64,000 nucleotides of DNA from an uncultured Elusimicrobia bacterium (GTDB taxonomy: Bacteria > Elusimicrobiota > Elusimicrobia > FEN-1173). Positions 15,452 through 35,270 of the stretch are shown in pieces. Position 1 is the stretch's first letter. Each line of letters opens with the position of its first letter. The stretch covers positions 16,251 to 80,250 of the forward strand of contig CAYZXT010000009.1 of NCBI GenBank assembly GCA_964482515.1, read 5' to 3'. A program made the position numbers and the translations under genes. The notes under the pieces were generated by a model, which did no database searches, had not been told where the DNA came from, and worked only from the letters and a program-made list of their open reading frames with translations.

Positions 15452-15622
15452 GACGGTATCTCCGGTGTCGCGCAAAGTGTGGTCCCCCGGGAAAGCGCCG
15501 GACGGGCGGTTGCGGGGCGAGCTGTATAAATATGTGCCTAGAAATGAATAAATTCAACGATTTGTTGATTTTGTTTGGGGGAGGGGGGCGGCGGGTTCGT
15601 GAATTCGGGAACGAACGGCGGA

Positions 15623-16669
15623 TTACTTTTTTATGTAGACCTGGATTCCTTCGGAGAGGGCGGAGAAGAGGATTTGGAGGGCGTAGCTGAGCAGGGCGAT
15701 CACCACGATCACGATCAGCGTCATCAACTGTTCCATGCCGGCGTAGTTCGACACGAAGATCAACAGGGAAACGAACCCGGCGATCAGGCCCGTGGCCGCC
15801 GACAGCCGGCTGAGGAACCGCAGCATCTCGCTGACCTGCTGCAGGGTGCCGAAGGGGGAGAGGTTCAGCTTCTCGGGCGGGGCGGATTCCTGCAAAACGC
15901 TGCCGCAGGACGTGCAATACCAGGACGCCAGCCCGTTGTTGGCGTGGCAGCGGTCGCAGGTCTTGTGGTCGAGCTTGCCCACGAAGCGGCGCCGGAAGAT
16001 GAAGAAGCGCTCCGCCGTCGCGATGGCCGACCAGAGCGACAGTCCGATGATCCCGCCCAGCACGGCCTCGCTCAGCCGCCGCAGGACCCAGGAATCCATG
16101 GCCACGGTCTGGATCAAATAAACGTGGAACGAGGACCCGAGGTAGGCGCCGATGCCCCCGCCCAGAAACCCGCTGGCCACGCCCCAGAAGATTTTGTCCG
16201 CCCGCTTCTCCCACCAGGCGCTCACGGTGCCGATGGCCGCGCCCGCGATGGCCCAGTAAAGGAAGATCAGCCAGGGGATGAAGTCCGGCCCCAGGCGCGT
16301 CTGCAACAGTTGGAAGATCAGCCCGCCGGCGAGCCCGCCCAGTCCGCCTACCAGCGCGCCCCGGACGGTCTTCGGCGTGGACTCCTCCACCATGCCGTCC
16401 ACCGAACCCAGGAACGCCCCGCCCATGAGCCCCGTCAACCCGTAGATCGAATAGCCCGAGCCCGTCTGCGACAGGATGCGGGCCACCATGGGGATGAAGA
16501 ACCAGGCGATGACGCCGGCGGTCGAGCCCGCGCAGGCGCGGCGCAGGATCCAGTGCAGGTGGCCGCGGAACTTGGCGGCGGCGAAGGAGACGGGGTTGAA
16601 GGCCATGCGGCAGCGGCCGCAGTAGTTCAGCTGGATCGGGTTTTCATGGTCGCAGGAGGGGCATTTCAT
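15623..16669 (-). CDS. Polytopic membrane protein with two zinc-ribbon motifs
   Basis: MKCPSCDHENPIQLNYCGRCRM (CxxC-x11-CxxC) at the N-terminus; several Gly-zipper-like TM segments (GALVGGLGGLAGGLIF); a second ribbon HKTCDRCHANNGLASWYCTSCG; and further C-terminal TM helices. Confidence 0.65.
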   Translation of the reverse strand: MKCPSCDHENPIQLNYCGRCRMAFNPVSFAAAKFRGHLHWILRRACAGSTAGVIAWFFIPMVARILSQTGSGYSIYGLTGLMGGAFLGSVDGMVEESTPKTVRGALVGGLGGLAGGLIFQLLQTRLGPDFIPWLIFLYWAIAGAAIGTVSAWWEKRADKIFWGVASGFLGGGIGAYLGSSFHVYLIQTVAMDSWVLRRLSEAVLGGIIGLSLWSAIATAERFFIFRRRFVGKLDHKTCDRCHANNGLASWYCTSCGSVLQESAPPEKLNLSPFGTLQQVSEMLRFLSRLSAATGLIAGFVSLLIFVSNYAGMEQLMTLIVIVVIALLSYALQILFSALSEGIQVYIKK

Positions 16670-16716
16670 CTCGAAGGATTTTTATCATATGCGTTGCCGC
16701 CAGGCAACGTGCCGGT

Positions 16717-16785
16717 CCTTGTCCGCTAGGCATGGTCCCGGTCTGTCGGATGGGATTGTCGGATGGCACAGGCCACGGGACAATT
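16717..16785 (+). repeat. Dispersed island repeat, copy A
   Basis: Core CCTTGTCCGCTAGGCATGGTCCCGGTCTGTCGGATGGG plus a second block TGGCACAGGCCACGGGACAATT. Homologous copies lie at 19005-19088 (same orientation), 22131-22201 and 23809-23845 (inverted). Confidence 0.75.
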
Positions 16786-16789
16786 GGTA

Positions 16790-16818
16790 AAATTGTGCAG
16801 CAAGTTGCTGCACAATTT
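16790..16818. promoter_or_regulatory. Perfect 29-nt palindrome upstream of the YhcG-like gene
   Basis: AAATTGTGCAGCAA-G-TTGCTGCACAATTT (14-bp arms, checked base by base) ends 38 nt before ATG 16857. A second, imperfect palindrome TGCCACAGCTTGCGGCA follows. Confidence 0.6.
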
Positions 16819-16856
16819 AAAACTGCCACAGCTTGCGGCAGAATTAGGTGAACATT

Positions 16857-17942
16857 ATGCCGCGTCAGAAAAAATCCCATCCAATAGTGAAACAAGCTGC
16901 TTCATCATTTCCGATGCCCGTTGATTTGTTGTCGGACATTCGAGGGTTTATTGAGACAACCCGTTCCCGGACGGCGCAGGCCGTCAATGCCGCATTGGTC
17001 ATGCTCTATTGGCGCATCGGGCGGCGTATCCAAGACGATGTTCTTAAAAACAAGCGGGCCGGTTATGGGGAAGAGATTGTGCAGACACTGTCGACACAAT
17101 TGGTCCCTGAATTCGGGGAGGGATTTGGCAAGCGGGTTCTTTTTCGGATGATTCGGTTCGCCGAGGCTTTCCCGGACGAACAGATTGTGTCGACGCTGTC
17201 GACACAATTGGGATGGTCTCATTTTGTGGAAATCATTCCCTTGGACGATCCGCTCAAGCGGAATTTCTACGCCGAGATGTGTCGGCTGGAGGGCTGGAGC
17301 GTGCGGAAGTTGCGGGAGAAAATCAGCGGGATGCTTTTTGAGCGGACGGCCCTTTCTAAGAAACCCGCCAAACTCGCTGAGTTGGAGCTGAAGAAGCTTC
17401 GCGAAGAGGACAAGCTCACGCCGGACCTGGTTTTCCGGGACCCTTATTTCCTGGATTTTCTCGGTCTTAAAGGTGTGTATCTGGAAAAGGATTTGGAAGC
17501 CGCGATCTTGCGGGAGATGGAGACGTTCATCCTGGAGTTGGGGGCCGGTTTTTCCTTCGTCTCTCGGCAAAAACGCATCCAGATCGGCGGAGAGGATTTT
17601 TATTTGGACCTTTTGTTCTATCACCGTAAACTGCGCCGCCTCGTCGCCGTGGAATTGAAATTGGGGAAGTTTAAACCCCAGTTCAAAGGCCAGATGGAGC
17701 TTTACCTTCGCTGGCTGGACAAGCACGAACGGCAGTCCGGCGAAGAAGCGCCGCTCGGACTCATCCTTTGCGCGGACAAGTCCGACGAACAGGTGGAGTT
17801 GTTGCAACTTGAAAAGAGCGGCATTCGCGTTGCTCAATATATGACTGCCTTGCCGTCTCGAAAGGTATTGGAAAATAAACTCCACCAAGCCATCCGCCAT
17901 GCGCGGGAACGCTTGGAAACCATAAAAGAATCCGGCGATTAG
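16857..17942 (+). CDS. YhcG/DUF1016 family PD-(D/E)xK nuclease
   Basis: The DUF1016_N region has the duplicated IV(Q/S)TLSTQL and WSHFVEIIPL motifs. The C-terminal nuclease core is GEDFYLDLLFYHRKLRRLVAVELKLGKFKPQFKGQMELYLRWLD. ATG 16857 is preceded by AGGTG; the track starts at GTG 16848. Confidence 0.85.
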   Translation: MPRQKKSHPIVKQAASSFPMPVDLLSDIRGFIETTRSRTAQAVNAALVMLYWRIGRRIQDDVLKNKRAGYGEEIVQTLSTQLVPEFGEGFGKRVLFRMIRFAEAFPDEQIVSTLSTQLGWSHFVEIIPLDDPLKRNFYAEMCRLEGWSVRKLREKISGMLFERTALSKKPAKLAELELKKLREEDKLTPDLVFRDPYFLDFLGLKGVYLEKDLEAAILREMETFILELGAGFSFVSRQKRIQIGGEDFYLDLLFYHRKLRRLVAVELKLGKFKPQFKGQMELYLRWLDKHERQSGEEAPLGLILCADKSDEQVELLQLEKSGIRVAQYMTALPSRKVLENKLHQAIRHARERLETIKESGD

Positions 17943-18011
17943 TGACCCCGTTGGCCCGTTTCTTTGGTTACTTTCTTTCGGGCACGCGAAAGAAAGTGAC
18001 ATAATGTCCGC

Positions 18012-18983
18012 ATGCCACCCCCGTGGAAACCGATATTACTTGTCGGGCTATGCCTGATATCCACCGGCGCGGCGCATCCCTGGTCCCGCGCCGGGCATGA
18101 AGCCTCCGCCCTCATCGCCGAAGGCCGCCTCGACCCCGCCACCCAAGCCAAAATCCGCGCGCTCCTCGGGCCCGGCGTCGGGCTGGACGACATCGCCCTC
18201 TGTTCCGACGCCATCAAGCGCCGCTCCGTGAACTGCGCCGGCGCCTTCTTCGTCAAGCGCGCGCCCCACACCAAGGCCTGGCATTACATCGACATCCCCA
18301 TTTCCGACGAACCCGCCGCCGGCGGCCTGCAGCAGTATTGCCCCAACGACGATTGCGTGACGGACCGCATCGCCGACCAAACCAAGGTCCTCAAAGACCC
18401 CGCCGCCCCGCGGCTGGAGAAGCAGGTCGCGCTCATGCACCTGGTCCATTTCGTGGGCGACCTGCACCAGCCGCTGCACTGCGCCGACGACAGGGACGCC
18501 GGCGGCAACGGCAAGAAGGTCTGGTTCATGGCGGGTCCCCGCGCCCGGAAGCCCGCCACCCTCCACCAGCTCTGGGACAACATGGTGGAGAAGGATTCCG
18601 TGCACGACAGGCTGGACGTCCGCGGCCTGGCCCGGTCCCTGGACGGCGCGATCACGGAGGAGGAAGCCGCGGCCTGGGCCAGGGGCTCCACCCACCAATG
18701 GACGATCGAAAGCCACCGCATCGCCCGGAACACGATCTATCCGCAGTACGCGCGGGACAAGGGGAAGGATTTGGGCAAGGACTACCAGGACGCCATGCGC
18801 CCCATCGCCCATGAACAGGTTCAAAAGGCCGGCGTCCGGCTGGCGGTGCTGCTGGACAAGACCCTGGCCGGCGTCACGGTGGAAGACCTCACCCGCGAAG
18901 CCCCGAAGCGGAAGGCGACGCCCGTTCCCACCGGACAAAAACCGCCCAAAGGCGGCGGCCCCATCCCCCTGCCGGGAAGATAG
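18012..18983 (+). CDS. Exported S1/P1-family nuclease
   Basis: Signal peptide then ...HPWSRAGHEASALIAE, WHYIDIPI, ALMHLVHFVGDLHQPLHC and LHQLWD (zinc ligand motifs of the S1-P1 family), with a Pro/Lys-rich tail. Confidence 0.8.
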   Translation: MPPPWKPILLVGLCLISTGAAHPWSRAGHEASALIAEGRLDPATQAKIRALLGPGVGLDDIALCSDAIKRRSVNCAGAFFVKRAPHTKAWHYIDIPISDEPAAGGLQQYCPNDDCVTDRIADQTKVLKDPAAPRLEKQVALMHLVHFVGDLHQPLHCADDRDAGGNGKKVWFMAGPRARKPATLHQLWDNMVEKDSVHDRLDVRGLARSLDGAITEEEAAAWARGSTHQWTIESHRIARNTIYPQYARDKGKDLGKDYQDAMRPIAHEQVQKAGVRLAVLLDKTLAGVTVEDLTREAPKRKATPVPTGQKPPKGGGPIPLPGR

Positions 18984-19004
18984 GTTTTTGATGTCATTCC
19001 GGCG

Positions 19005-19088
19005 CCTTGCCGCTAGGCATGGTCCCTCTTTGTAAGAAGGGGGGTAGGGTGAGGGTGGGCATTTATCGTGGCACAGCCCGGCCAAATT
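19005..19088 (+). repeat. Dispersed island repeat, copy B
   Basis: CCTTGCCGCTAGGCATGGTCCCTCTTTGTAAGAAGGGG ... TGGCACAGCCCGGCCAAATT. It starts 22 nt after the S1/P1 stop. Confidence 0.75.
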
Positions 19089-19190
19089 TCCTAATATGGC
19101 GAAGTGGTTTTCAGACGGAAACAGCGAGGGCGTCTTGAGGGAATCATGGGGCGCGTGAGGTTTGTTTTGGGAAATGATTAGGAGGATTGT

Positions 19191-21977
19191 TTGCCTTTAA
19201 GTTGGAATGAGATTCGTCATCGAGCTATTGGATTTTCACGCGAATGGGCAACGGCTGTGCGTGAAAGATCGGAATCCCAAACTTTTTGGAATGAATTTTT
19301 CCTGGTCTTTGGCTTCCCGCGGAAGAAAGTCGCCCTCTTTGAGGAACCAGTAAAGAAGTTGTCTGGGGAATATGGGTATATCGATCTCATCTGGCCGGGA
19401 ACGTTGTTGGTTGAACATAAGAGTTTCGGTCAAGACTTAAGCAAGGCTGAGTCTCAAGCTTTCCGCTATGCCAGGAGTTTGAACCAAGAGGATTCTCCCC
19501 GCTACATCATCGTTTCGGATTTCGCCCGCATCTCTCTCCACGATTTGGAAGAGGACAAAAGTATTACCTTTCCACTGACTGACTTTCATAAACACATCCA
19601 CGACTTCGCATTTATGTCCGGGTATCAGCAGCATACCTTTCAAGATCAAGATCCTATCAATATCGAAGCCGTCGAAATCATGGGTAAACTCCATGATGTT
19701 CTTGGGGACGGTGGCTACAGCGGCCATAAACTGGAGCGGTTTCTAGTCCGCATTCTTTTTTGCCTCTTCGCAGAGGATACGGGTATTTTCGAACGTGAGG
19801 AATTTCACTTCTTTATACGGAACAGCACCTCCGAGGATGGCTCAGATTTAGGGAACCATCTTGCCCGACTGTTTGACGTCCTAAACACACCAAAAGAAAA
19901 ACGCCAAAAGAACCTCGATGAATCCCTTGCAGATTTACCTTATGTAAATGGGGAACTGTTCGCGGAGAACCTTGGTTTCGCGGACTTCAATAGCGATATG
20001 CGCAATGCGCTTTTGGCCTGCACGCGGTTTGATTGGTCCAAGATATCTCCAGCCATCTTCGGCTCTCTATTCCAAGCGGTAATGGAACCGAAAGAGCGCC
20101 GCCAAATCGGAGCACACTATACCAGCGAGAGGGATATATTGAAAGTTGTTCGGAGTCTATTTCTTGATGATCTCCGCGTAGAATTTGAGGGTATCAAGAG
20201 ATCCACTGGTCAAAGTCGTAAATCTGGATTGAAACGCTTCCATGAAAAAATCTGCGCTTTACGTTTTCTTGATCCGGCCTGTGGTTGCGGTAATTTTCTT
20301 GTTATTACCTACCGTGAACTCCGTGAATTGGAATTGGAAACATTACGGGAGTTGCATCTTACAGGCACCGGTGAGGCAAAAGGATTCCAGCAGGAATTAA
20401 CGCTTGAGGAAGTAAACAGACTATCACTTGTTGATGTGGACCAACTATACGGCATTGAATTGAAGGAATGGCCCGTAAGAATCGCCGAAGTGGCTCTTTG
20501 GTTAATGGATCATCAAATGAACATCAAGGTTTCCGAGACCTTCGGCCAATTGTATCAAAGGCTTCCTCTGAAGAAACGTCCCAACATCGTGCAAGGTAAC
20601 GCTTTACGAATGGATTGGAAAGAAGTCATTCCCCCAGAGAAATGCAGTTACATCCTTGGGAACCCGCCATTTGTGGGGGCCATGTATATGGAGCCAGAGC
20701 AACGGCACGATATGCTGCTTGCAGCGAATAATTTAAATGGTGTTGGTGTTTTGGATTATGTTTCGGCATGGTATTTTGTCGCTTCGGGCTATGTAACGGG
20801 GACAAAAATAAGAGTTGGTTTTGTTTCAACCAACTCGATTACACAAGGCGAGCAGGCGGGAATTTTATGGTCTGAACTGTTTAATCGGGGAGTGAAGATT
20901 CATTTTGCACATCGGCCATTCGCCTGGGATAGTGAGGCCAGAGGAAAGGCTCATGTTCACGTTGTGATAATAGGATTTGGTGTTTTCGACATCCCGGCAA
21001 AAATAATATTTGATTATGATGCTAATCCCGGGAAACCAATCTTGTCGCAGGTTCGTAATATTAATCCTTATTTAGTTGAGGGCATGGACATTTGCATTCG
21101 TAATCGAAGTGAGCCGATTTGTAATGTTCCCAAAATGGCTTGGGGAAGCCAGCCTCGGGATGGGGGAAATTTCCTGATGAGTTCCGAGGGAAAAAAGGAT
21201 CTATTACGTAAGGAACCTGCTGCAATAAAATGGATTAGACCATTCATGGGGGCTGAAGAGTTTTTAAATGGCGTAGAACGATGGTGCCTTTGGTTGGTGG
21301 GTATTCAGCCGCAAGAACTTAACAGCCTTGTTGAAGTCAAAAATAGAGTTGAAGGTGTAAAGCAAATGCGTCTTTCTAGTAAAGCGGAAGCGACCCGAAA
21401 AAAAGCGAGCACACCAACATTATTTGCCCAAATTGCACAGCCAAACTCTGATTATCTTCTGGTCCCATTGGTAAGTTCTGAACGCCGTTCAATTATTCCA
21501 TTTGGCTTCATGTCCAAAGAGGTTATTGCCAGCAATCTTTGTTGCATAGTTTCGGATGCTACGCCATATCATTTCGGAATACTCTCATCGTCTATGCATA
21601 TGGCCTGGGTTCGTCAGATTTGTGGTAGGCTCGAATCTCGTTACAGGTATTCAAAGGATATCGTCTACAACAATTACCCTTGGCCGCAAAATCCGACGGA
21701 CAAACAGAAAGTCGCGGTGGAAGAGGCGGCGCAAAACGTCTTGGACGTCCGAAAGGAATATTCAAAATCCACGTTGGCCGATCTTTACGATCCACTGTCC
21801 ATGCCGCCGAAGCTTGTCAAGGCTCACGCGAACTTAGACCGGGTTGTTGACCTTTGCTATCGCAAGGAATCGTTCACCAGCGAACGCCAGCGCGTGGAAT
21901 ATCTTTTCAATTTATATGAGCGATTGACCGAACCGTTGGTTGCTATGTCTAGTCGGAAAAAGCGAACCAAGACTTAG
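19191..21977 (+). CDS. MmeI-family type IIL restriction-modification enzyme (single-chain endonuclease plus N6-adenine methyltransferase)
   Basis: The N-terminus reads SWNEIRHRAIGFSREW...ESQTFWNEFFLVFG...YGYIDLIWPGTLLVEHKS (D...ExK). The SAM motif is RFLDPACGCGNFLV and the catalytic motif is LGNPPFVG. It is 928 aa with a TTG start preceded by AGGAGG, and is clearly AT-richer than the flanks. Confidence 0.85.
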   Translation: MPLSWNEIRHRAIGFSREWATAVRERSESQTFWNEFFLVFGFPRKKVALFEEPVKKLSGEYGYIDLIWPGTLLVEHKSFGQDLSKAESQAFRYARSLNQEDSPRYIIVSDFARISLHDLEEDKSITFPLTDFHKHIHDFAFMSGYQQHTFQDQDPINIEAVEIMGKLHDVLGDGGYSGHKLERFLVRILFCLFAEDTGIFEREEFHFFIRNSTSEDGSDLGNHLARLFDVLNTPKEKRQKNLDESLADLPYVNGELFAENLGFADFNSDMRNALLACTRFDWSKISPAIFGSLFQAVMEPKERRQIGAHYTSERDILKVVRSLFLDDLRVEFEGIKRSTGQSRKSGLKRFHEKICALRFLDPACGCGNFLVITYRELRELELETLRELHLTGTGEAKGFQQELTLEEVNRLSLVDVDQLYGIELKEWPVRIAEVALWLMDHQMNIKVSETFGQLYQRLPLKKRPNIVQGNALRMDWKEVIPPEKCSYILGNPPFVGAMYMEPEQRHDMLLAANNLNGVGVLDYVSAWYFVASGYVTGTKIRVGFVSTNSITQGEQAGILWSELFNRGVKIHFAHRPFAWDSEARGKAHVHVVIIGFGVFDIPAKIIFDYDANPGKPILSQVRNINPYLVEGMDICIRNRSEPICNVPKMAWGSQPRDGGNFLMSSEGKKDLLRKEPAAIKWIRPFMGAEEFLNGVERWCLWLVGIQPQELNSLVEVKNRVEGVKQMRLSSKAEATRKKASTPTLFAQIAQPNSDYLLVPLVSSERRSIIPFGFMSKEVIASNLCCIVSDATPYHFGILSSSMHMAWVRQICGRLESRYRYSKDIVYNNYPWPQNPTDKQKVAVEEAAQNVLDVRKEYSKSTLADLYDPLSMPPKLVKAHANLDRVVDLCYRKESFTSERQRVEYLFNLYERLTEPLVAMSSRKKRTKT

Positions 21978-22008
21978 ATCAAAAAGGTGTTTTTATGAAA
22001 AAGAAACC

Positions 22009-22035
22009 GGTACCGGAGTTGACAGATTGACAATC
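22009..22035 (+). repeat. Copy 2 of the GT(G/A)CCGGAGTTGACA motif
   Basis: GGTACCGGAGTTGACAGATTGACAATC, 32 nt after the MmeI-like stop. Confidence 0.7.
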
Positions 22036-22076
22036 AGGTTCAGTACTAGATTTGATTTGTTGAAGGAGCCCCCGCA

Positions 22077-22223
22077 ATGAAAACCAAAAAGCCCCTCTGC
22101 CAAGCCATCAACACGAAAGGGAAGAAGTGCATTGTCCCTGCCGTGCCCGGCAGCAAATTCTCACCTTCCTACAGACAGGTGCCACGGCTAGCGCCGACGG
22201 GTTTCCGACATAAGAAGAAATAA
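22077..22223 (+). CDS. 48-aa basic protein with a short Cys motif (possibly degenerate)
   Basis: GAAGGAG lies 9 nt upstream of the ATG. The product is MKTKKPLCQAINTKGKKCIVPAVPGSKFSPSYRQVPRLAPTGFRHKKK. It is too short for the ORF track, and its 3' half is made of island repeat copy C. Confidence 0.4.
   Translation: MKTKKPLCQAINTKGKKCIVPAVPGSKFSPSYRQVPRLAPTGFRHKKK
22131..22201 (-). repeat. Dispersed island repeat, copy C (inverted)
   Basis: The reverse complement reads CCCGTCGGCGCTAGCCGTGGCACCTGTCTGTAGGAAGGTG ... GGCACGGCAGGGACAAT. Confidence 0.7.
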
Positions 22224-22369
22224 CTGTCCTTTTCTCCCGTTATTCCCAGCCCGTTTCCCTAAAACTTCAGATTAAATCCCGCTAAGCTCCAGATTCTTCC
22301 TCTATGATGAGGTGAGATATGGTTCTTGATGGTCGTTCACATATATGTTAACCTTGAGGAGATGGCGGC

Positions 22370-22792
22370 GTGAGCACTCATTCTGAGAAGCGGAATTGCG
22401 TGCTTTATTCCGGCCGGTTCTATTCGGCCGAATGGTATTACAGGGAGGACGGCGGGATGCCGGCTCTCGAATATTATCGGGAACTCCCTATCCATGATCG
22501 AGTGCGGCTATTACAGATCATTAAGCACCTGTGCGACGCTCCCTACGGGACAATCCTTCCCGTGACGCTTTACAGGATCGAAGATCGGGAAAACAAGATT
22601 TACGCGTTTAAGCCGAGGGACGAGCGATTCTTCAGTTTTACGATGGAGGGCGCAAGGGTCATCGTTACGAACGCTTACCGCAAGCATTCACAACAGATGA
22701 CCAAGGCGGATCTGGAGTCCTTGAAAACAGCTGTTCGCTATCGGAACGATTATTTGAGGCGCCTGAAAGAGGGGACATATTATGAAGGCTAA
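22370..22792 (+). CDS. RelE/ParE-superfamily toxin (Gp49/DUF891-like)
   Basis: ...KIYAFKPRDERFFSFTMEGARVIVTNAYRKHSQQMTKADLE. The GTG start is preceded by GAGGAG, and the gene overlaps the downstream HTH gene by 11 nt. Confidence 0.65.
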   Translation: MSTHSEKRNCVLYSGRFYSAEWYYREDGGMPALEYYRELPIHDRVRLLQIIKHLCDAPYGTILPVTLYRIEDRENKIYAFKPRDERFFSFTMEGARVIVTNAYRKHSQQMTKADLESLKTAVRYRNDYLRRLKEGTYYEG

Positions 22793-23132
22793 AAAGAAAA
22801 TCAAAAAGGCAAAGAGCACCTTTGATCGGGAAATGGAAAACCCGGAATTCAGGAATCTTTTCGAGGAATCTTGGCCCGCCTTCCAAGTGGAAGTCCAGCT
22901 GCTGAAAGCCTTGGAAGGCAAGCAATGGTCCTATTCCGACCTCGCGAAGGTATTGCACACGCAGAAGAGCGCCATTTCGCGCGACCTGAAAGGCGGCGGC
23001 ATTCGGTCTGCTTCCATCACGCGGATCGCGAAGATGGCGGAAGCCCTGGGAATGAGATTTATCCCGTTCTGCGTCTCCGAGAAGAAGGCGAGGGAAATTC
23101 TTCCCGCTATCAAGAAACTCCTGGCCGCGTAA
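22782..23132 (+). CDS. HTH (XRE-like) antitoxin
   Basis: WSYSDLAKVLHTQKSAISRDLKGGGIRSASITRIAKMAEALGMRF is a helix-turn-helix pattern. The gene is small and translationally coupled to the toxin gene. Confidence 0.65.
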   Translation: MKAKKKIKKAKSTFDREMENPEFRNLFEESWPAFQVEVQLLKALEGKQWSYSDLAKVLHTQKSAISRDLKGGGIRSASITRIAKMAEALGMRFIPFCVSEKKAREILPAIKKLLAA

Positions 23133-23141
23133 TAGGGATTC

Positions 23142-23167
23142 GTGCCGGAGTTGACACGTTGACAATC
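23142..23167 (+). repeat. Copy 3 of the GT(G/A)CCGGAGTTGACA motif
   Basis: GTGCCGGAGTTGACACGTTGACAATC, 10 nt after the antitoxin stop and 32 nt before ATG 23199. Confidence 0.7.
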
Positions 23168-23198
23168 GACCAGCCTATTCTTTAAGTACAATACCTCC

Positions 23199-24242
23199 AT
23201 GCCGAAAGAATCCATCCCCTCGGTCGCCCATCCCGCCTACGCCAAGCTCCGTTCCGCCGTCCACAAAACCCTCCTCCTCGGTCAGAAACAAATCGAACAA
23301 GCCAAAGTCCGTACCTACTACGAAACCGGAAAACACATCCAAGAACATATCGCCCGCTACGGTTCGCGCTCCGAGCATTACGGCGCTCAAGTGGTGGAGA
23401 AGCTTTCGGTTGATTTGGGGATTAGCACCCGGGTCTTGCGGCAGTGTGTGCAGTTCGCCCGGAACTTCAAGATTGTGAACGCGCGTTCACAATCTTTGCC
23501 GGCCCAATTGCCTTGGACGCATTACCGTCAACTGATGACCATTCCGGATGAGGACGCGCGGATTTCCCTGATGAAAAGGGCCGAGAAGTCCGAATGGAGC
23601 GAACGCCAGCTGGCGGAGAAGATCCGCCTTGAGGTGCGAGAAGCAAAGTCCCCGTCAACCAACGGCGGGCATAGTTCAATGGTAGAAAAGAAGTATCCCA
23701 AGCTCATTCCCAAGCGCGGCGAGCTTTACACGTACCGCCTCATTGCGCCGGAAGCGGTTGATGGCGAAGCGGGTCTGTGGATTGATTTGGGTTTCCAGGT
23801 GCGGCGCACCTTTCCACAAACAGGTGCCATGGCTAGCGCCAAGGGCGGACAGATCGTGGAATCCAAAAAGACGGGGGAAATCTATTCCGCGGTCCCGTCC
23901 AAGCGGACGGAGGCGGACTTGTTCACCTTCCAGGCGCCGGTGGAGCGGGTGGTGGACGGCGACACGCTGATCGTGAACGTCGACCTGGGGTTCGACACGG
24001 GCGTGCGGCAATACCTGCGGTTGCGCGGCATCAATTGCCCGGAGCTGGACACGCCGGAGGGCAAGCGGGCCAAGGCCTTCGTGGAAAAGGAATTGGGGAA
24101 AGCGCGGCGGATCATCCTGACGAGCTCCCGGTCCGACAAGTACGACCGCTACCTGGCGGACGTGTTTATTGAGTCCACCAACGGCGAACGATATCTGAAC
24201 CAGGCGCTGCTGGACGAAGGCCTCGCGGTCCGGATGGAATAG
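23199..24242 (+). CDS. DUF1016_N domain fused to a staphylococcal-nuclease (SNase)-like domain
   Basis: The N-terminal 150 aa parallels the YhcG N-domain (…WTHYRQLMTIPDEDARISLMKRAEKSEWSERQLAEKI). The C-terminus reads VVDGDTLIVNVDLGF...YLRLRGINCPELDTPEGKRAKAFVEKEL...DKYDRYLADVFI...YLNQALLDEGLAV. Confidence 0.75.
   Translation: MPKESIPSVAHPAYAKLRSAVHKTLLLGQKQIEQAKVRTYYETGKHIQEHIARYGSRSEHYGAQVVEKLSVDLGISTRVLRQCVQFARNFKIVNARSQSLPAQLPWTHYRQLMTIPDEDARISLMKRAEKSEWSERQLAEKIRLEVREAKSPSTNGGHSSMVEKKYPKLIPKRGELYTYRLIAPEAVDGEAGLWIDLGFQVRRTFPQTGAMASAKGGQIVESKKTGEIYSAVPSKRTEADLFTFQAPVERVVDGDTLIVNVDLGFDTGVRQYLRLRGINCPELDTPEGKRAKAFVEKELGKARRIILTSSRSDKYDRYLADVFIESTNGERYLNQALLDEGLAVRME
23809..23845 (-). repeat. 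Dispersed island repeat, copy D (inverted, inside a CDS)
   Basis: The reverse complement reads CCCTTGGCGCTAGCCATGGCACCTGTTTGTGGAAAGG. On the + strand it encodes TFPQTGAMASAKG in the linker of the DUF1016_N-SNase protein. Confidence 0.65.
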
Positions 24243-24248
24243 CCCTCC

Positions 24249-24303
24249 CAATCTTCATCCCTCCTTCAGTCGTTCTTCAGACTTAAAAAGTAATCTCTCC
24301 TCC
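24249..24303 (+). promoter_or_regulatory. Conserved ORF6N leader, copy L2
   Basis: CAATCTTCATCCCTCCTTCAGTCGTTCTTCAGACTTAAAAAGTAATCTCTCCTCC, followed by an ATG (24304) that hits a stop after 4 codons. Confidence 0.7.
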
Positions 24304-24334
24304 ATGAATTGTGCATGATGAATGGGAGGACTAG

Positions 24335-24359
24335 AGGTGGTCGCAAATTGCGACCGCCT
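24335..24359. repeat. Near-perfect palindrome in the ORF6N-2 5' region, sharing a 17-nt core with the copy-1 in-gene palindrome
   Basis: AGGTGGTCGCAA-A-TTGCGACCGCCT has one T:G mismatch. The core GGTCGCAAATTGCGACC (24339-24355) is identical to 2035-2051. Confidence 0.8.
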
Positions 24360-24386
24360 TCGACCACTCAAATTCTTGGAGGTTTT

Positions 24387-24914
24387 ATGCGAGCTGTAAT
24401 GAAAACCGAACACATTCAATCGATGATATTCCTGATTCGCGGGCGCAAGGTCATGTTGGACCGTGATTTGGCGGCGCTTTATGGCATTGCCACAAAGGTC
24501 CTTAAGCAGGCTGTTAAGCGGAATCATTTGCGATTCCCGGAGGATTTCATGTTTGAACTGTCTGCGGAAGAGCAGTCAAATTGGAGGTCACAATTTGTGA
24601 CCTCCAATTCTTCCCTGAATAAGGGACTCCGGTGGCGTTCAATGGCATTCACTGAGTATGGTGTGGCCATGCTTTCCGGCGTTCTGAAAAGTGAAAGGGC
24701 CGTTCAGGTTAATATCGCCATCGTTCGGGCATTTATCGACATGCGGCGGATGATTTCGGAAACACGAGGGTTGGCGGAGAAATTGGCGGAGCATGAGAAA
24801 AAGATCGGGGGACTGGCGAACGATGTCCGGCATATGTTCGACCTGCTACAGCCGTTGCTGGATGGACCCACTAAAAAACCCGGGAAGATCGGGTTCGGAA
24901 TGCGACAGATTTAG
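24387..24914 (+). CDS. ORF6N domain protein, copy 2 (apparently intact)
   Basis: MRAVMKTEHIQSMIFLIRGRKVMLDRDLAALYGIATKVLKQAVKRNHLRFPEDFMFELSAEEQSNWRSQFVTSN...[35 protein letters not shown] lies 4 nt before ATG 24387; the frame is open from 24309. Confidence 0.85.
   Translation: MRAVMKTEHIQSMIFLIRGRKVMLDRDLAALYGIATKVLKQAVKRNHLRFPEDFMFELSAEEQSNWRSQFVTSNSSLNKGLRWRSMAFTEYGVAMLSGVLKSERAVQVNIAIVRAFIDMRRMISETRGLAEKLAEHEKKIGGLANDVRHMFDLLQPLLDGPTKKPGKIGFGMRQI
24579..24609. repeat. Perfect 31-nt palindrome inside ORF6N copy 2 (15-bp arms)
   Basis: AATTGGAGGTCACAA-T-TTGTGACCTCCAATT, checked base by base. It encodes NWRSQFVTSN. Confidence 0.9.
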
Positions 24915-25570
24915 CGGGCGATGAGGGCGTTGTACGCCCGGATGGCGGCGTAGGCGTCGTTGGCGGCGTAGAGGAGTTGCAGTTCGCTGAGGATCGGGAG
25001 CCCCCAGTTGGACGTGCCCTGCTTTTTGGATTTGAGGAAGCGTTGTTTGAAGAGCAGCGCGATGCCCACCTTGGAGCCCACGCCGCGGCCGAAGCCCTTT
25101 TCGGCGAAGAGCGTTTCGAGGTCCACCACGCCGTGGGGCTCGACGCGCAGTTTCTTGCGGATGCGCGACAGGTCGTCCCCCAGGCCGAAACCCACTTTTT
25201 TGAGGCTCTTAAAAGAGATGAGTTCGGCGGCGGCCTGGCGGCATTCCGGCTGGTTCAGCATGAACACGTAGCCGCGCGTGGCGGTGGCGAACTGGACGAC
25301 GTGGGGGCCGGTGGAGACCTGTCCTTTATGGAAGGTGGGTTTGGATTCGGTGTCGAAGCCCACCACGCTTTCGGCCGCGAGCTCCTTGAACGCCCGCTGC
25401 GCGAGGGCCGGCGTGTTCACCGCGAGGATGTCCCCGCGGCGCAGGGCGTGGAACGGCGGAAGGGCCGCCATTTCCTCGCGCGTGGGCCAGTGGGCCGGGC
25501 GCTGGCGGTTCGGGACGCGCGGCGGCGCGGAGGGTTTGAACAGTTTTTTGAGCCAGCGGCGGATGACCAA
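24911..25570 (-). CDS. 3'-5' exonuclease, DEDDy (RNase D / WRN-exo-like) family
   Basis: VVGFDTESKP (DxE), KKVGFGLGDDLSRI and LLYAANDAYAAIRAY (Yx3D). Confidence 0.75.
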   Translation of the reverse strand: MVIRRWLKKLFKPSAPPRVPNRQRPAHWPTREEMAALPPFHALRRGDILAVNTPALAQRAFKELAAESVVGFDTESKPTFHKGQVSTGPHVVQFATATRGYVFMLNQPECRQAAAELISFKSLKKVGFGLGDDLSRIRKKLRVEPHGVVDLETLFAEKGFGRGVGSKVGIALLFKQRFLKSKKQGTSNWGLPILSELQLLYAANDAYAAIRAYNALIAR

Positions 25571-25576
25571 GGGGGA

Positions 25577-26212
25577 TTACGGTTTCCGGAACAGCGAGGC
25601 GTCCACCGGGCCGGGGGTGAACTCGACGGCTTCCTCGGTCCGCCGGAAGACGGTGGTGTTGGCCTGGGAGGAGTGCAAAACGATTTCGGCCTTCAGGACC
25701 GCGCCCGTCTCGGCGTCCACCCAGGCGTCGACGCTGCGCACGGAGTCCGGCAATTTCACCTTGGCGTGGTAGCGCCGGGCCTTGCGGCCCGCCACTGTTT
25801 CGGTCTCGCCCGCCTCGCCGGTGTAGGCCTTCCGCCAGAAGCGGATCTCGTGGAGCTCCGCCTCCGTGGGTTTGTGGGAATACTCGGAGGGCTCCGTGGC
25901 GTGCGCGCCGTCGGGCGAAGGGGCGTAGACGATCTTTTCGAACAGGGTCTCGCCGTCGAAGAACCGCGTCACCTTGTATTCGGCGGGGGGCGCCATGAAG
26001 CGGTCCTCCCGCGCGTCGGCCTCGGTGCGGAAGCGCTTCCCGTCGGTGTGGATCCTGACGCGCTCCGCGGTTTTCGTGCCGGCCGTTTCGTTCTCCCGGA
26101 TGACCGTCCAGGTGCCGCTGAAGGGCGAGTCCTGGACGCGGCTGGGCGAGCATTTCTTGAGCAGGAAAGCGAAGGCGGCGACGGCGAGGACGGCCAGGAG
26201 CAGGTTCTTCAT
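25577..26212 (-). CDS. Exported or anchored protein of unknown function
   Basis: It begins MKNLLLAVLAVAAFAFLLKKCSPS and is soluble and beta-rich afterwards. There is a 6-nt gap to the downstream exonuclease gene. Confidence 0.5.
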   Translation of the reverse strand: MKNLLLAVLAVAAFAFLLKKCSPSRVQDSPFSGTWTVIRENETAGTKTAERVRIHTDGKRFRTEADAREDRFMAPPAEYKVTRFFDGETLFEKIVYAPSPDGAHATEPSEYSHKPTEAELHEIRFWRKAYTGEAGETETVAGRKARRYHAKVKLPDSVRSVDAWVDAETGAVLKAEIVLHSSQANTTVFRRTEEAVEFTPGPVDASLFRKP

Positions 26213-26287
26213 GGCCTGATTGTAAGAAACAACCGCCGCCGGTTCAAGGGCGGAGATTCACCCGACCCGCTTCCGAGGCCTTCCTCC

Positions 26288-26344
26288 CAATCTTCATCCT
26301 CCCTCCCGCGGTTCTTCAGAATCAAAAAGTAACCTTTCCTGCGG
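26288..26344 (+). promoter_or_regulatory. Conserved ORF6N leader, copy L3
   Basis: CAATCTTCATCCTCCCTCCCGCGGTTCTTCAGAATCAAAAAGTAACCTTTCCTGCGG is fused directly to mid-gene ORF6N sequence. Confidence 0.7.
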
Positions 26345-26551
26345 TTCCCGGAAGATTTCGCATTTCGCCTGAATAAAGAGGAATATGAGTCTTTAAGATT
26401 CCAAACTGGAATCTTAAAGAGAGGACAGCACGCCAAGTATCTGCCATTGGTATTCACTGAGCAAGGCGTTGCCATGCTCTCGAGCGTTCTCCGGAGCAAA
26501 CAGGCGGTTCAAGTGAACATCGCCATCATGCGAGTTCCCCTACTCCCTTGA
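26333..26551 (+). pseudogene. ORF6N relic (copy 3), lacking both the N-terminal and C-terminal parts
   Basis: A frame without a start codon reads ...[64 protein letters not shown], then PLLP*. The IRG.KVMLD.DLA..YGV N-terminal segment is missing. Confidence 0.8.
26390..26420. repeat. Perfect 14-bp-arm palindrome inside the ORF6N relic
   Basis: TCTTTAAGATTCCA-AAC-TGGAATCTTAAAGA, checked base by base. It encodes [11 protein letters not shown]. Confidence 0.9.
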
Positions 26552-26577
26552 TAGTAAGTAGCTTATAAACTACACTT

Positions 26578-26925
26578 ATGGAGGCCGGGTTGGAAATCAA
26601 ACCCCTGAAGATTGAATATTATTACGCGAGGGATGGCCGGGTTCCCTATAGGGAATGGTTTTATTCCTTGAAAGATATGAAAACCCGGCAGATTATCATT
26701 GCACGCTTAACGCGGGTGGAGCGGGGATTGTTGGGAGATTCTAAGTCCATTGGTTCGGGCGTTCATGAACTCCGGATTGATAAAGGACCAGGATATCGTA
26801 TTTATTTTGGACGACAGGGCGATCACGTCATCCTGCTTTTATTAGGCGGCACTAAGAGCAGCCAAAGGAAAGACATTGAAAAAGCCCATGATTATTGGGT
26901 GGATTATTTAAGGAGACAAGGATGA
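26578..26925 (+). CDS. Addiction-module killer protein (RelE/HigB-like, COG3657-type)
   Basis: ...DGRVPYREWFYSLKDMKTRQIIIARLTRVERGLLGDSKSIGSGVHELRIDKGPGYRIYFGRQGDHVILLLLGGTKSSQRKDIEKA. Confidence 0.8.
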   Translation: MEAGLEIKPLKIEYYYARDGRVPYREWFYSLKDMKTRQIIIARLTRVERGLLGDSKSIGSGVHELRIDKGPGYRIYFGRQGDHVILLLLGGTKSSQRKDIEKAHDYWVDYLRRQG

Positions 26926-27236
26926 AGAAGCCCACGTACCATGAAGATCTCATTGAAAGCTTGAAGGACCCTAAATACGCCTTGGGGTATCTGAACGCCT
27001 GTTTGGAAGATGAGGACGAAGGGGTGTTCCTCCTGGCATTGAAGCATGTGGCCGAAGCCCATGGCGGGTTGAGCGGACTGGCGAAGAAAACGGGATTGAA
27101 CCGGGAACATCTTTTTCGAATGTTGTCCAAGAACGGGAATCCGCGCCTGGAAAACCTGCGGCAGGTGGCCGGCGCGTTCGGGTGGAAGATCCGCTTCGTG
27201 GAGATGAAATCCCCGAAACTGCGCCGCGCCGCTTAA
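26922..27236 (+). CDS. Addiction-module antidote protein (HigA-family HTH)
   Basis: MKKPTYHEDLIESLKDPKYALGYLNACLEDEDEGVFLLALKHVAEAHGGLSGLAKKTGLNREHLFRMLSKNGNPRLENL. It has an ATGA start/stop overlap with the toxin gene. Confidence 0.8.
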   Translation: MKKPTYHEDLIESLKDPKYALGYLNACLEDEDEGVFLLALKHVAEAHGGLSGLAKKTGLNREHLFRMLSKNGNPRLENLRQVAGAFGWKIRFVEMKSPKLRRAA

Positions 27237-27253
27237 GCCCCGCCCGGTTTCCG

Positions 27254-27451
27254 TCAGATTTCGAACTTGTGCCGTCCCACCAGCACGCTCTCCGCGTGCT
27301 CGATCCGGTAGGCCCCCGGGTCCCGCAGGAATTCCGCCTTGCACTCCGGGCTGCAGAAATAAACCGTCCAGCCGCCGGAGAGCGTTTGTTCCGTGTGCAG
27401 CGCGAAATCGAGCTGTCGTCCGCAAACAGGGTCTTTGACCATGGCGATCAC
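27254..27451 (-). CDS. YHS/TRASH-type small metal-binding domain protein
   Basis: VKDPVCGRQLD...YFCSPECKAEFLRDPGAY. Confidence 0.55.
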   Translation of the reverse strand: MIAMVKDPVCGRQLDFALHTEQTLSGGWTVYFCSPECKAEFLRDPGAYRIEHAESVLVGRHKFEI

Positions 27452-27604
27452 CTCTGGAAAAAAATCGAAGGGGGGTCCTGTTGATTGGTGGGAAAGCGTG
27501 GGGGCGTCTCTACTTCTAGTTTAGCAAACCCGCCGGGGGATTGGTCGCCTGGACATAAGTTGTTTTCCGGGCAAGACTTATCCGCGAGTTCTATAATACT
27601 CCCC

Positions 27605-28528
27605 ATGCCCTCGAGCCGCACGTTTCAAAGGATGGTTTTGCTGGCCGCTTTCTTCGCGTCCGCGCCCGGATTTGTCTTCGCGGCGCCGGAGGAAGCGTCG
27701 ACCGCCGAACGGCAGCGGCACCACCAGCTGGGCGTCGACGTGGGGTCCGACGTCGATCCCGACATCCTGTCGCCCTCCGCGCCCCAGGGCCTCGACCGCC
27801 GCTTCGAGTGGGACTACCGCTTCGTGATCAGGGAAGATCGGGCGGGCGTCAACGCCCAATACCACAATCCCAAACGCCTTCAAAAACTCAGCTTCAGCTA
27901 CCGCCAACGCATGGACTTCCCCAGTCGCGCGGGGCTGGGCCCGACGCGAAACCGCCTGTACAAATCCCTCGGCCAGAAGACGCGCTCGCGGGACGTGAGC
28001 GGCTACGTGGCGGGATCCGCCTTGGTGTTGAACCCCTATTGGGGGATCAGCCTGGTGCACGACGAATATGTGAAAGACAACGCCAACGAGCTTTTCAACC
28101 AGCACGCCACGACCCTTGGGCTGGGCTACAGTCCCCTGGGCGACAACCGGGGCCGGCCCTGGAGCTACACCATTGATCCTTCCGTGACCTACGCGCGGTT
28201 CCACGGGCTCAAACCGGTGCCCAACCAGCATTGGGAAAGCTTCGGCTATTCCCTCGGATCAAGCTTCTATTACGGCCTCGACTGGGTCCGCGTTCCCCTC
28301 GGGCGGTCGTTCAAATTGGACCGCCTGAAGCTGAGCGTGTCCGTGTCCGACGCCGAGGTTTCGGACTTCGCGATCAACGGGGGCGTCGACCTGACGGCCT
28401 ACGCCACCCGCCACATCAAGCTGAAGCTGGGCGTCGAAAACAGCTACACGCCCGAAACGGGGAAGCATTCCTTCCGCCTGCGCGCGGGGCTGAGCCTGCG
28501 GCTGACCTGGTCCGACCTGAACTTCTGA
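27605..28528 (+). CDS. Outer-membrane beta-barrel protein, unknown function
   Basis: Taken from the internal ATG: MPSSRTFQRMVLLAAFFASAPGFVFAAPEE (signal peptide). It ends ...LSLRLTWSDLNF. Confidence 0.55.
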   Translation: MPSSRTFQRMVLLAAFFASAPGFVFAAPEEASTAERQRHHQLGVDVGSDVDPDILSPSAPQGLDRRFEWDYRFVIREDRAGVNAQYHNPKRLQKLSFSYRQRMDFPSRAGLGPTRNRLYKSLGQKTRSRDVSGYVAGSALVLNPYWGISLVHDEYVKDNANELFNQHATTLGLGYSPLGDNRGRPWSYTIDPSVTYARFHGLKPVPNQHWESFGYSLGSSFYYGLDWVRVPLGRSFKLDRLKLSVSVSDAEVSDFAINGGVDLTAYATRHIKLKLGVENSYTPETGKHSFRLRAGLSLRLTWSDLNF

Positions 28529-28542
28529 CGATAAACACTGTT

Positions 28543-28562
28543 GCCGCATCGTGCGGCTTTTG
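28543..28562 (+). terminator. Intrinsic terminator
   Basis: GCCGCA-tcg-TGCGGC-TTTTGG, 15 nt after the stop at 28528. Confidence 0.55.
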
Positions 28563-28634
28563 GTATCTTTCCTCCGTGCCGTCCATCCCCGGCCCGACTC
28601 TCCCCACTCAAAAGAAAATGGAACCCATCTAAAC

Positions 28635-35024: not shown

Positions 35025-35198
35025 GCGGATCCTCCGATGGAAATCCTAGCTTAATAAAAACCGCTTGGTCGAGGCGTTTTTAATTCCGCAAAATATTTCG
35101 CGCAAAAAATGATTGATGTGGAGTAAAATGTTTTTTTAATGATAAGATCATGTGAGAAGCGAATATTCTCAATGCCGAAAACCAAGGAGGCTCAGTTC

Positions 35199-35258: not shown

Positions 35259-35270
35259 CTATTTTCTTCT

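Follow-up and report, generated by a model that had tools for sequence, protein, structure and literature searches.

An Accessory Interval in an Elusimicrobia Genome Is Likely a Mosaic of Resident Genes and Three Separately Acquired Blocks

Introduction

A 64-kb stretch of DNA from an uncultured Elusimicrobia bacterium (GenBank assembly GCA_964482515.1, contig CAYZXT010000009.1, positions 16,251 to 80,250), hereafter called the window and used as the coordinate system throughout, carries between the gene of a zinc-ribbon membrane protein and that of a Rho-like ATPase a dense series of nuclease, restriction-modification (R-M), toxin-antitoxin (TA) and ORF6N genes with short repeats between them. 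The locus raises the question of whether these genes form a single defence or addiction island of about 10.7 kb, the cassettes of which turn over by recombination at the repeats and the nucleases of which act together, as an earlier reading of the sequence had proposed (the original prediction), or whether the interval was assembled in another way. Our analysis indicates that the DNA between these two flanking genes is likely a variable mosaic, in which resident genes alternate with three foreign blocks acquired independently and the repeats are not shown to be joints. Genes were called from the list of open reading frames (ORFs) and from profile searches (Pfam, NCBIfam, PADLOC), and all genes named in the original prediction were found in their places.

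Comparison with Related Genomes

The comparison loci were gathered via homologues of the zinc-ribbon protein (15623-16669, minus strand), a resident gene conserved in Elusimicrobiota, with a G + C content at third codon positions (GC3) of 0.93, that serves as the left synteny anchor; several of its 53 homologues are named as Elusimicrobiota, which assigns the organism to this phylum. The right anchor is the Rho-like (ATP-synt_ab) ATPase gene at 28551-29531 on the plus strand. In the closest relative, L007, the zinc-ribbon protein is 88% identical, the gene of the exported S1/P1 nuclease (18012-18983, plus strand; PF02265, E 7e-54) directly adjoins the zinc-ribbon gene, and the YhcG gene (16848-17942, plus strand) is absent. 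The S1/P1 orthologue of L007 shows 65% protein identity and 76% nucleotide identity, nucleotide homology spans window positions 15633-16817 and 18011-18959, and the relative carries 315 nt where the window holds the 1.2-kb YhcG block (16818-18010). Downstream of S1/P1, in place of the gene of the MmeI-like enzyme (19191-21977, plus strand), L007 contains low-GC (0.41) genes for an Mrr_N-like protein of 87 aa and an unknown protein. As judged from these alignments, S1/P1 is a resident gene, YhcG is an indel, and the position after S1/P1 is occupied by different cargo in two close genomes.

In a more distant metagenome-assembled genome (MAG; loci L003/L004), the two anchors are 74% (zinc-ribbon) and 84% (ATPase) identical and lie merely 3 kb apart, with msrA, a gene for an HI0933-like flavoprotein and a gene for a 132-aa protein between them and none of the island genes. 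Synteny was lost in L005 and L006, the zinc-ribbon proteins of which are 70-75% identical, and these loci were informative solely for a homologue of a small cysteine-containing ORF in L005, described below. Based on synteny, the variable interval extends from 16670 to about 28550, a little past the right edge originally drawn. The accessory, hotspot-like character ascribed to it was borne out, as its content differs among relatives with conserved flanks (L007, L003/L004).

Further relatives were sought by three scans: the contigs of genomes with the S1/P1 protein and the metagenome scan with the exported protein encoded at 25577-26212 yielded no relatives, and a metagenome scan with a 19-mer located 3' of S1/P1 gave one unrelated chance match (L025).

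A conserved segment of about 50 nt (TTTCCTAATATGG...TTTCAGACGGAAAC...) was observed 3' of S1/P1, at 19085-19135 in the window and in two copies in L007 (1100-1160 and 1245-1300). In each genome the first cargo gene, which is not the same in the two, has a copy of the segment approximately 30-60 nt upstream of it, and the segment may be a shared promoter or entry point for variable cargo.

Base Composition and Edges of the Interval

The GC3 baseline, calculated from 42 window genes, was 0.834 +/- 0.059. The lowest values were found for the MmeI-like gene (0.46, z -6.3) and the HigB-like toxin gene (0.47), followed by ORF6N (0.57), the Gp49-like toxin gene (0.62), YhcG (0.64, z -3.3), an ORF of 48 aa (0.65), the two helix-turn-helix (HTH) antitoxin genes (0.69 each) and the gene in which a DUF1016_N domain is fused to a staphylococcal nuclease (SNase) domain (0.75). 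The YHS-domain gene (27254-27451, minus strand; PF04945, E 5e-8) was near-native (0.79, z -0.8), while S1/P1 (0.87), the DEDDy 3'-5' exonuclease gene (24911-25570, minus strand; PF01612, E 7e-14; 0.87, z +0.7) and the gene preceding it, which encodes an exported 211-aa protein (25577-26212, minus strand; 0.92, z +1.4), were native in composition. Native genes ranged in z from +0.6 to +1.4 and foreign genes from -1.5 to -6.3. The GC and GC3 profiles confirmed the blockwise AT-richness that had been noticed earlier. Neither of the observations that the original prediction had named against itself was obtained: gene order is not conserved across the relatives (L007, L003/L004), and the composition deviates in GC3.

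A single 10.7-kb island was not recovered. Because L007 has an orthologue of S1/P1 at the same location and the exonuclease/exported pair is native in composition, the foreign DNA falls into three separate blocks: block A at about 16818-18010 (YhcG), block B at about 19136-24914 (from the MmeI-like enzyme through ORF6N) and block C at about 26213-27236 (an ORF6N relic and a RelE/ParE-type TA pair). The resident set would comprise the genes for the S1/P1 nuclease, for the DEDDy exonuclease and its exported partner, and for the YHS protein. YhcG would have come with block A and the ORF6N relic with the second TA pair with block C, while block B would have contributed the gene of the MmeI-like enzyme, the small zinc-finger ORF that is now disrupted, the Gp49/HTH TA pair, the DUF1016_N-SNase gene and ORF6N.

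Other lower-GC patches (0.51-0.56) were observed at 35000-36000, 40873-41940 and 60000-64000, at or near genes encoding a superoxide dismutase, a GNAT acetyltransferase, and an extracytoplasmic function (ECF) sigma factor with a PAS histidine kinase. The island is therefore not the sole part of the window with patchy composition.

That the region is core rather than accessory, its low GC being due to local constraints or to an assembly chimera, is hardly credible. All contigs of the same population do share one order, with no polymorphism observed. However, relatives with conserved anchors are devoid of the genes, the GC3 deviation reaches 6 standard deviations, and the families concerned are classic mobile defence genes, YhcG homologues being present in 527 plasmid records. 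Moreover, the same gene order was found on overlapping contigs from three other sequencing runs (Logan assemblies); since these contigs agree, the order is no assembly artefact, and a chimera is excluded.

The edges of the interval bear on a further explanation, in which it is the decayed remnant of one integrated mobile element (an integrative and conjugative element, a prophage or an integrative island) that lost its integrase, the resident-looking genes having been captured or ameliorated. Homologues of YhcG and ORF6N on plasmids often adjoin integrases or transposases, ORF6N matches phage anti-repressor PHROGs, and just to the left of the zinc-ribbon gene, in DNA of native composition, lies a gene (14165-15475) for a protein of 436 aa whose C-terminal domain is Peptidase_S74 (tail-fibre/endosialidase chaperone). 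Against this, neither a tRNA gene in the 64-kb window nor an integrase or transposase domain among the ORFs of the island and its flanks was detected, in agreement with what had been claimed earlier, and no long flanking or att-like direct repeat occurs in or at the edges of the interval, so that the combination of integrase and tRNA/att site that marks a classical genomic island is missing. The strong differences in GC3 among the foreign blocks (0.46 to 0.75) fit separate origins, and S1/P1 stands in place in the relative without the neighbouring cargo. A single decayed element is thus distinctly unlikely.

Repeat Families of the Interval

Three repeat families had been described between the genes, namely the island repeat, the GTGCCGGAGTTGACA motif and the ORF6N leader; here they are identified as a dispersed 38-nt element, a TTGACA-bearing upstream motif and the leader of a three-copy ORF6N family, respectively. 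All of them exist, but each also has a copy outside the island, at 59461-59498, 1724-1738 and 1788-1834, respectively.

The 38-nt element occurs in five copies in the window. Copy 1 (16718-16755, plus strand; nhmmer E 1.8e-8) lies upstream of the zinc-ribbon gene and has a degenerate left arm; L007 possesses a copy orthologous to it in position (2656-2693), likewise upstream of the zinc-ribbon gene. Copy 2 (19005-19042, plus strand; E 7e-10) sits within a window-specific segment of approximately 125 nt (18960-19084) that is missing there in L007, between the S1/P1 stop codon and the shared segment. The remaining copies, all on the minus strand, are placed in the 48-aa ORF (22162-22199; E 2.5e-10), in the variable linker of the DUF1016_N-SNase gene (23807-23844) and outside the island (59461-59498; E 4e-9). 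When a degenerate 23-nt pattern of the element was searched against one genome per species (185,579 species), all 12 of the 12 matching loci (L008-L019) belonged to two Elusimicrobia MAGs, and these loci hold at least 17 copies. Most of the matches are at contig ends, and some are part of longer multi-copy repeats; their neighbours are ordinary genes, and one match falls within a giant ORF.

The element folds into two adjacent hairpins, the first with a 7-bp stem and the loop GCTA, the second with a 5-bp stem and the loop GTTTGTCGGA. Among 15 distinct copies, 93% of the cells pair, compared with 31-52% in slid controls; changes on both sides were found in 7 of the 12 pairs, and the observed covariation score was reached by none of 500 shuffles. 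The element is thus short, multi-copy, lineage-restricted and marked by compensatory changes, as expected of elements resembling the repetitive extragenic palindromic (REP) sequences. No Rfam family matched the element or longer versions of it, and no gene resembling a REP-associated tyrosine transposase (RAYT/TnpA) was seen among the scanned proteins of the island and its flanks, where no search was aimed at such genes.

The copy at 22162-22199 shows what the element can do within a gene. The 48-aa ORF (22077-22223, plus strand) is a small Cys-x8-Cys-x10-Cys-x2-His gene broken by the in-frame element, with the third cysteine lost: the corresponding stretch is ...LCGAINTKGKKCVMPAVLGTDFCFRHQKK (...GTDFCFRHQKK) in the homologue from L005 and ...GSKF[SPSYRQVPRLAPTG]FRHKKK in the window. 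This homologue (L005, 11111-11215) was observed directly downstream of the zinc-ribbon gene in a relative with 75% identity. Its existence implies that the 48-aa ORF, which had no Pfam match, stems from a real small gene of the lineage.

Three other identities of the element were considered and rejected. A sigma-54 promoter (TGGCAC-N5-T..) does not agree with the copies, since by eye they lack the GG-N10-GC spacing and half of them lack TGGCAC. An integron attC site is incompatible with the missing integrase, the wrong architecture and the mixed orientations. Finally, the copy at 23807 was dismissed as the junction of the SNase domain fusion because that fusion is ancient and widespread.

Compared with known systems, the element resembles REP sequences and bacterial interspersed mosaic elements (BIMEs), as well as the Rickettsia palindromic elements as these are generally described, in being short, hairpin-forming, dispersed, multi-copy and lineage-restricted, in breaking assemblies and in lying in frame within genes. 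It differs in consisting of two adjacent hairpins with conserved loops and in the lack of an Rfam family and of a visible RAYT/TnpA-like gene, and the Rickettsia elements are much longer. Integron cassette arrays and clusters of attC sites lacking an integrase (CALINs) share with the locus co-oriented small cassettes, including TA pairs, with hairpin-forming repeats between them. However, no integrase domain was found among the scanned proteins of the island and its flanks, the genes here have their own upstream motifs, and the tetraloop-type hairpins of the 38-nt element, which occur in both orientations and inside ORFs, do not present the R''/R' core sites when compared by eye with the usual attC architecture. 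The 38-nt element is a dispersed element resembling REP sequences or miniature inverted-repeat transposable elements (MITEs), and is not shown to be a cassette junction.

The second family, GTGCCGGAGTTGACA, extended as ...TTGACA-N2-TTGAC, precedes three genes: the 48-aa ORF, the SNase fusion and a third ORF6N gene. The copy before the 48-aa ORF (22010-22035, plus strand) has the form GT(A/G)CCGGAGTTGACA-N2-TTGACAATC and contains the -35-like TTGACA twice, that before the DUF1016_N-SNase gene (23142-23167, plus strand) reads GTGCCGGAGTTGACA-CG-TTGACAATC, and an exact GTGCCGGAGTTGACA stands at 1724-1738 before the third ORF6N gene, outside the island. From where it stands and from the hexamers resembling a -35 box, the motif may be a promoter or operator.

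The third family is the 58-nt ORF6N leader, with copies at 24244-24301, 26283-26340 (before the relic) and 1788-1834 (before the third ORF6N gene). The intact gene with its leader occupies 24244-24914 on the plus strand (ORF 24309-24914; PF10543, E 9e-29), and the truncated relic with its leader lies at about 26283-26540 on the same strand; the two are 83% identical in the leader and 74% in the body. The third gene (1839-2375; PF10543, E 3.5e-30; PDC-S05) is located approximately 20 kb outside the island, and since it too carries the leader and an exact GTGCCGGAGTTGACA, ORF6N together with its upstream sequences constitutes a multi-copy module in this genome. Both this leader and the GTGCCGGAGTTGACA motif are thus sequences located upstream of genes and moving together with them.

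These results bear most directly on the proposal of one defence/addiction island, its cassettes swapped by recombination at three short repeats and several of its nucleases cooperating as one system, which we consider unlikely. Repeat copies do stand between genes (16718 and 19005; 22010 and 23142; 24244 and 26283), the subtypes of the 38-nt element suggest exchange between copies, and two DUF1016-family genes flank the type IIL enzyme, the association of DUF1016 with R-M genes being documented (PMC9881135). However, the L007 breakpoints (16817/16818, about 18010, 18959/19085 and about 19135) fall on none of the three families, all of which also occur outside the island, and the turnover of cassettes at short repeats consequently finds no support. 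Moreover, other Elusimicrobia carry the 38-nt element scattered next to ordinary genes, the element also lies inside ORFs, S1/P1 is orthologous in the relative and, like the exonuclease and the exported protein, native in composition, and homologues of the DUF1016_N-SNase gene have different neighbours.

Several observations weigh against our reading of the interval as a mosaic of resident genes and separate foreign blocks. The contigs found by exact-protein look-ups all belonged to the same population and had identical gene order, and no variant lacking a block was among them. The informative comparison consists of only one close relative (L007, a 3.9-kb contig) and one at middle distance (L003/L004), and an insertion of YhcG here is not polarisable against a deletion in L007. 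Composition is the sole basis on which the exonuclease/exported pair and the YHS gene are regarded as probably resident. The 38-nt element has two subtypes, GGCATGGTCCC and GCCRTGGCACC, the distribution of which looks as though sequence had been exchanged between copies, and the ORF6N copies bracket the resident-looking exonuclease block as direct repeats; taken together, these two features make some recombination between repeats possible. As for the GTGCCGGAGTTGACA motif, no sigma-70 promoter was called there by a simple consensus scan, which left only the -35-like upstream motif.

Defence-Related Genes

The richness in defence and addiction genes that had been proposed was evident, with a type IIG/IIL R-M enzyme, two DUF1016 proteins of the PDC-S02 type, an ORF6N protein of the PDC-S05 type and two TA pairs. 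Strong PADLOC matches were obtained for four of the 13 proteins scanned, the ORF6N relic being left out, and the TA pairs were backed by NCBIfam and Pfam.

The MmeI-like enzyme (928 aa, the first gene of block B) aligned over its full length with the MmeI structure 5HR4 (residues 1-920, E 1e-302), all five MmeI Pfam domains, which make up a single polypeptide of nuclease (MmeI_N), helicase-like spacer, gamma-class N6A methyltransferase, target-recognition domain (TRD) and C-terminal domain, were far over their cut-offs, and PADLOC assigned the protein to REase_MTase_IIG with 1197 bits. The motifs D-x9-E-x-K (GYIDLIWPGTLLVEHK), S-adenosylmethionine motif I (FLDPACGCGNFL) and NPPF (GNPPFVG) are kept. 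With MmeI the protein shares the five domains, the catalytic motifs and an identical ESRYRYS segment near the C-terminus, whereas part of the target-recognition region reads NLCCIVSDATP here and NATYHIPSAEP in MmeI, and the recognition sequence may therefore differ. Judging by these features, it is probably an intact, active type IIL/IIG R-M enzyme. Enzymes of the MmeI family cut about 20/18 nt from an asymmetric site and methylate one strand only.

The first TA pair (22370-23132, plus strand) consists of a Gp49/HigB-like toxin gene (22370-22792) and an Xre-type HTH antitoxin gene (22782-23132) that overlap by 11 nt. The Gp49 match was weak (18.2 bits, E 0.0026; cut-off 23.9), while the antitoxin scored 23.4 bits for HTH_3 (cut-off 23) and E 7.5e-6 for HTH_37. 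The overlapping arrangement is typical, and the pair is a probable toxin-antitoxin pair. The second pair (26578-27236, plus strand), a RelE/ParE-type toxin (upstrm_HI1419) and its antidote dnstrm_HI1420, matched TIGR02683 with 114.5 bits (cut-off 62.85) and PF21716 with 55.9 bits (cut-off 27), its genes overlap by 31 nt, and it belongs by these scores to a type II toxin-antitoxin family. Additional weak PADLOC matches to PDC-M64B were found for the HTH antitoxin.

YhcG (PF17761 and PF06250, E 1e-46 to 1e-48) combines DUF1016_N with a PD-(D/E)xK nuclease domain in which the D...ELK motif is present, and it matched PDC-S02 in PADLOC with E 4e-130. The DUF1016_N-SNase protein (23199-24242, plus strand; domains assigned by Pfam) matched PDC-S02 over the N-domain only (E 2e-21). 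More than 100 homologues of this same architecture were found in Elusimicrobiota, Omnitrophota and other groups, with 1053 matches at E <= 1e-3. The SNase motifs DGDT, RLRG and DKYxRYL are conserved, and the equivalent of SNase Asp40, as aligned by eye, is Asn in the window (GINCPE), most homologues having GIDxPE. YhcG is thus canonical for DUF1016 (PDC-S02) and lies near an R-M gene, as reported for the family, whereas in the second protein an SNase domain replaces PD-(D/E)xK, which makes it a member of a widespread but unstudied sub-family.

The neighbourhood of DUF1016 and R-M genes is already known. In a study of programmed inversions, most of the genes subject to inversion were R-M and BREX genes; DUF1016 genes were enriched beside them and, in the examples given there, lie inside or next to R-M loci (PMC9881135). 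In the one test found, four of eight candidate systems protected E. coli, and the PDC-S02 representative was not one of the four; one representative of PDC-S05 gave about 1000-fold protection against T7 and T5 (bioRxiv 10.1101/2024.09.26.614923).

The intact ORF6N protein matched PDC-S05 (E 7e-52) in addition to the phage anti-repressor PHROGs. It resembles ORF6N/RhuM-type proteins in its strong ORF6N domain and as a multi-copy hitch-hiker gene; unlike them, the ORF6N proteins here are short (175-201 aa), the RhuM C-terminal domain was not detected, and three leader-sharing paralogues occur within 64 kb. On plasmids, ORF6N genes were found beside integrases, beside a Tn3 transposase or between hsdM and hsdS; the last arrangement was observed in Treponema pTS1, where the two hsd genes are part of a type I R-M operon. 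The YhcG homologues of the plasmid records are often located beside integrases, and at the plasmid loci L026, L027, L030, L033, L035, L037 and L039 YhcG/ORF6N homologues were frequently seen adjoining tyrosine recombinase or integrase genes.

The five nuclease-type proteins that had been counted are all encoded, but the apparent clustering is inflated, as two of them (S1/P1 and the exonuclease) are probably resident. S1/P1, the exonuclease and the exported protein had no PADLOC match, and the exonuclease/exported pair had no PHROG match either. S1/P1 carries a signal peptide as read from its sequence and would probably serve in nucleic-acid scavenging. The suggestion that the nucleases act together as one system found no support: one DUF1016_N-SNase homologue (GCA_052388135.1) lies beside Vsr, a C5-methylase (Dcm) and an Eco29kI-type endonuclease, another (GCA_030688425.1) beside AbiEii (AbiE), an EcoRI-type methylase and a GmrSD-like gene, and ORF6N is absent from both loci.

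The cargo genes would instead be independent stand-alone modules, the working of which is suggested by their families. The MmeI-type enzyme would methylate its own site and, on incoming DNA where that site is unmodified, cut about 20 nt from it, and the TA pairs would act as addiction or abortive modules. Genes of the DUF1016 and ORF6N families are candidates for defence by a single gene or for hitch-hikers, and both families are typically found as neighbours of R-M systems and integrases.

Makarova and co-workers in 2011 and later hotspot surveys reportedly described defence islands and chromosomal hotspots of integration that lie between conserved core genes. The interval resembles them, as they are generally portrayed, in that R-M, TA and candidate defence genes lie within a few kb, the composition is foreign and the content varies between conserved flanks. 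It differs in being small and interleaved with resident genes and in having no mobility gene, and turnover is shown here with two comparison genomes only.

Intragenic Palindromes

With a threshold of at least 10 matched arm positions, 15 palindromes were found in the window. The island holds eight of them and the third ORF6N gene one; of this set of nine, seven are associated with DUF1016_N or ORF6N genes or with their upstream regions, the intragenic ones at fixed codons; the ninth, at 17970-17997, forms a hairpin right after the YhcG stop codon. The intragenic palindromes are located at 17076-17100 and 17184-17208 in YhcG, at 23469-23496 in the DUF1016_N-SNase gene, at 24579-24609 in the intact ORF6N gene, at 26390-26420 in the relic and at 2030-2056 in the third ORF6N gene. 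Elsewhere, they occur at 6263-6288 in L020, 6262-6289 in L021 and 6205-6237 in L034, the last being yhcG of E. coli K-12 (NC_000913.3, 3368204-3368236); the shared codon position thus spans genes from E. coli K-12 to Elusimicrobia and Omnitrophota.

These near-perfect palindromes of 25-33 nt have arms that vary between homologues yet remain complementary owing to compensatory changes. In 11 of 13 DUF1016_N genes, from eight phyla, the best palindrome occupies the same domain position, encoding the peptide I-V-x-T-L-S-x-Q-L or a similar one. Its arms are AAGATTGTGAACGC and GCGTTCACAATCTT in the SNase fusion of the window, AGATTCTGTCCAC and GTGGACAGAATCT in L020, and AAGATTCTCGCCGC and GCGGCGAGAATCTT in L021, while yhcG of a Klebsiella plasmid carries CAATTGTCGCGACA-C-TGTCGCGACAATTG and that of E. 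coli K-12 AAAGATTTGGCAGAC-GCT-GTCTGCCAAATCTTT. Likewise, six of eight ORF6N genes have a palindrome at the L-R-S-Q-x-V-T-S codons, e.g., CTTGAGGTCGAAA-A-TTTCGACCTCAAG in Treponema. The best scores of 41 neighbouring control genes were 5-8, compared with 9-15 in the palindrome-bearing DUF1016_N genes, and codon shuffles averaged approximately 6.5.

Related palindromes stand upstream of the genes. A 33-nt palindrome, TAAAATTGTGCAGCAA-G-TTGCTGCACAATTTAA, at 16788-16820 upstream of YhcG abuts the left YhcG breakpoint (L007 homology ends at 16817) and has the half-site ATTGTGCAG in common with the internal YhcG site at 17076-17100. In the intact ORF6N gene, the leader is separated from what is likely the true start codon (ATG, 24387) by a stretch containing the palindrome AGGTGGTCGCAAATTGCGACCGCCT (24335-24359). 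Since GGTCGCAAATTGCGACC recurs in the palindrome within the third ORF6N copy, an operator would be compatible with this arrangement. In L007, nine palindromes were found within 480 nt between the zinc-ribbon and S1/P1 genes (about 2330-2725). About seven of them, many with ends of the AATTC...GAATT type, occupy as a tandem array the spacer that lacks YhcG; some resemble the intragenic palindromes of DUF1016_N genes, AATTGTCGCGACACTGT being identical to the Klebsiella yhcG site. The window retains one palindrome unit of the L007 type at the YhcG breakpoint.

No description of intragenic palindromes in DUF1016_N or ORF6N genes was found in the searchable literature. We tentatively propose that they could be functional cis-elements of both families (candidate operators, cruciforms, RNA hairpins or recombination sites), a possibility to which we give somewhat less than even weight. 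Their origin may alternatively lie in quasi-palindrome correction.

Other Features of the Window

Between the island and the ATPase anchor, the gene at 27485-28528, originally called an outer membrane protein gene, had no Pfam match, was absent from the relatives' loci compared, and encodes a protein for which no exact-protein record was found. A cobalamin riboswitch was detected at 45762-45922 on the minus strand, with a score of 32.7 bits that is marginally over the gathering score.

Significance

The island itself is a routine example of defence-gene clustering, in the poorly sampled phylum Elusimicrobiota, and the specificity of its MmeI-like enzyme may be new. The by-products of the analysis, namely the 38-nt element and the intragenic palindromes, are more useful than the island. 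The 38-nt element breaks assemblies in this lineage and merits masking and annotation. If the proposed role of the palindromes is true, they could explain the regulation of the DUF1016_N and ORF6N families, or the entry of these genes into R-M operons and defence islands. If functional, they would offer an experimental handle, usable in E. coli, on two very common families of unknown function.

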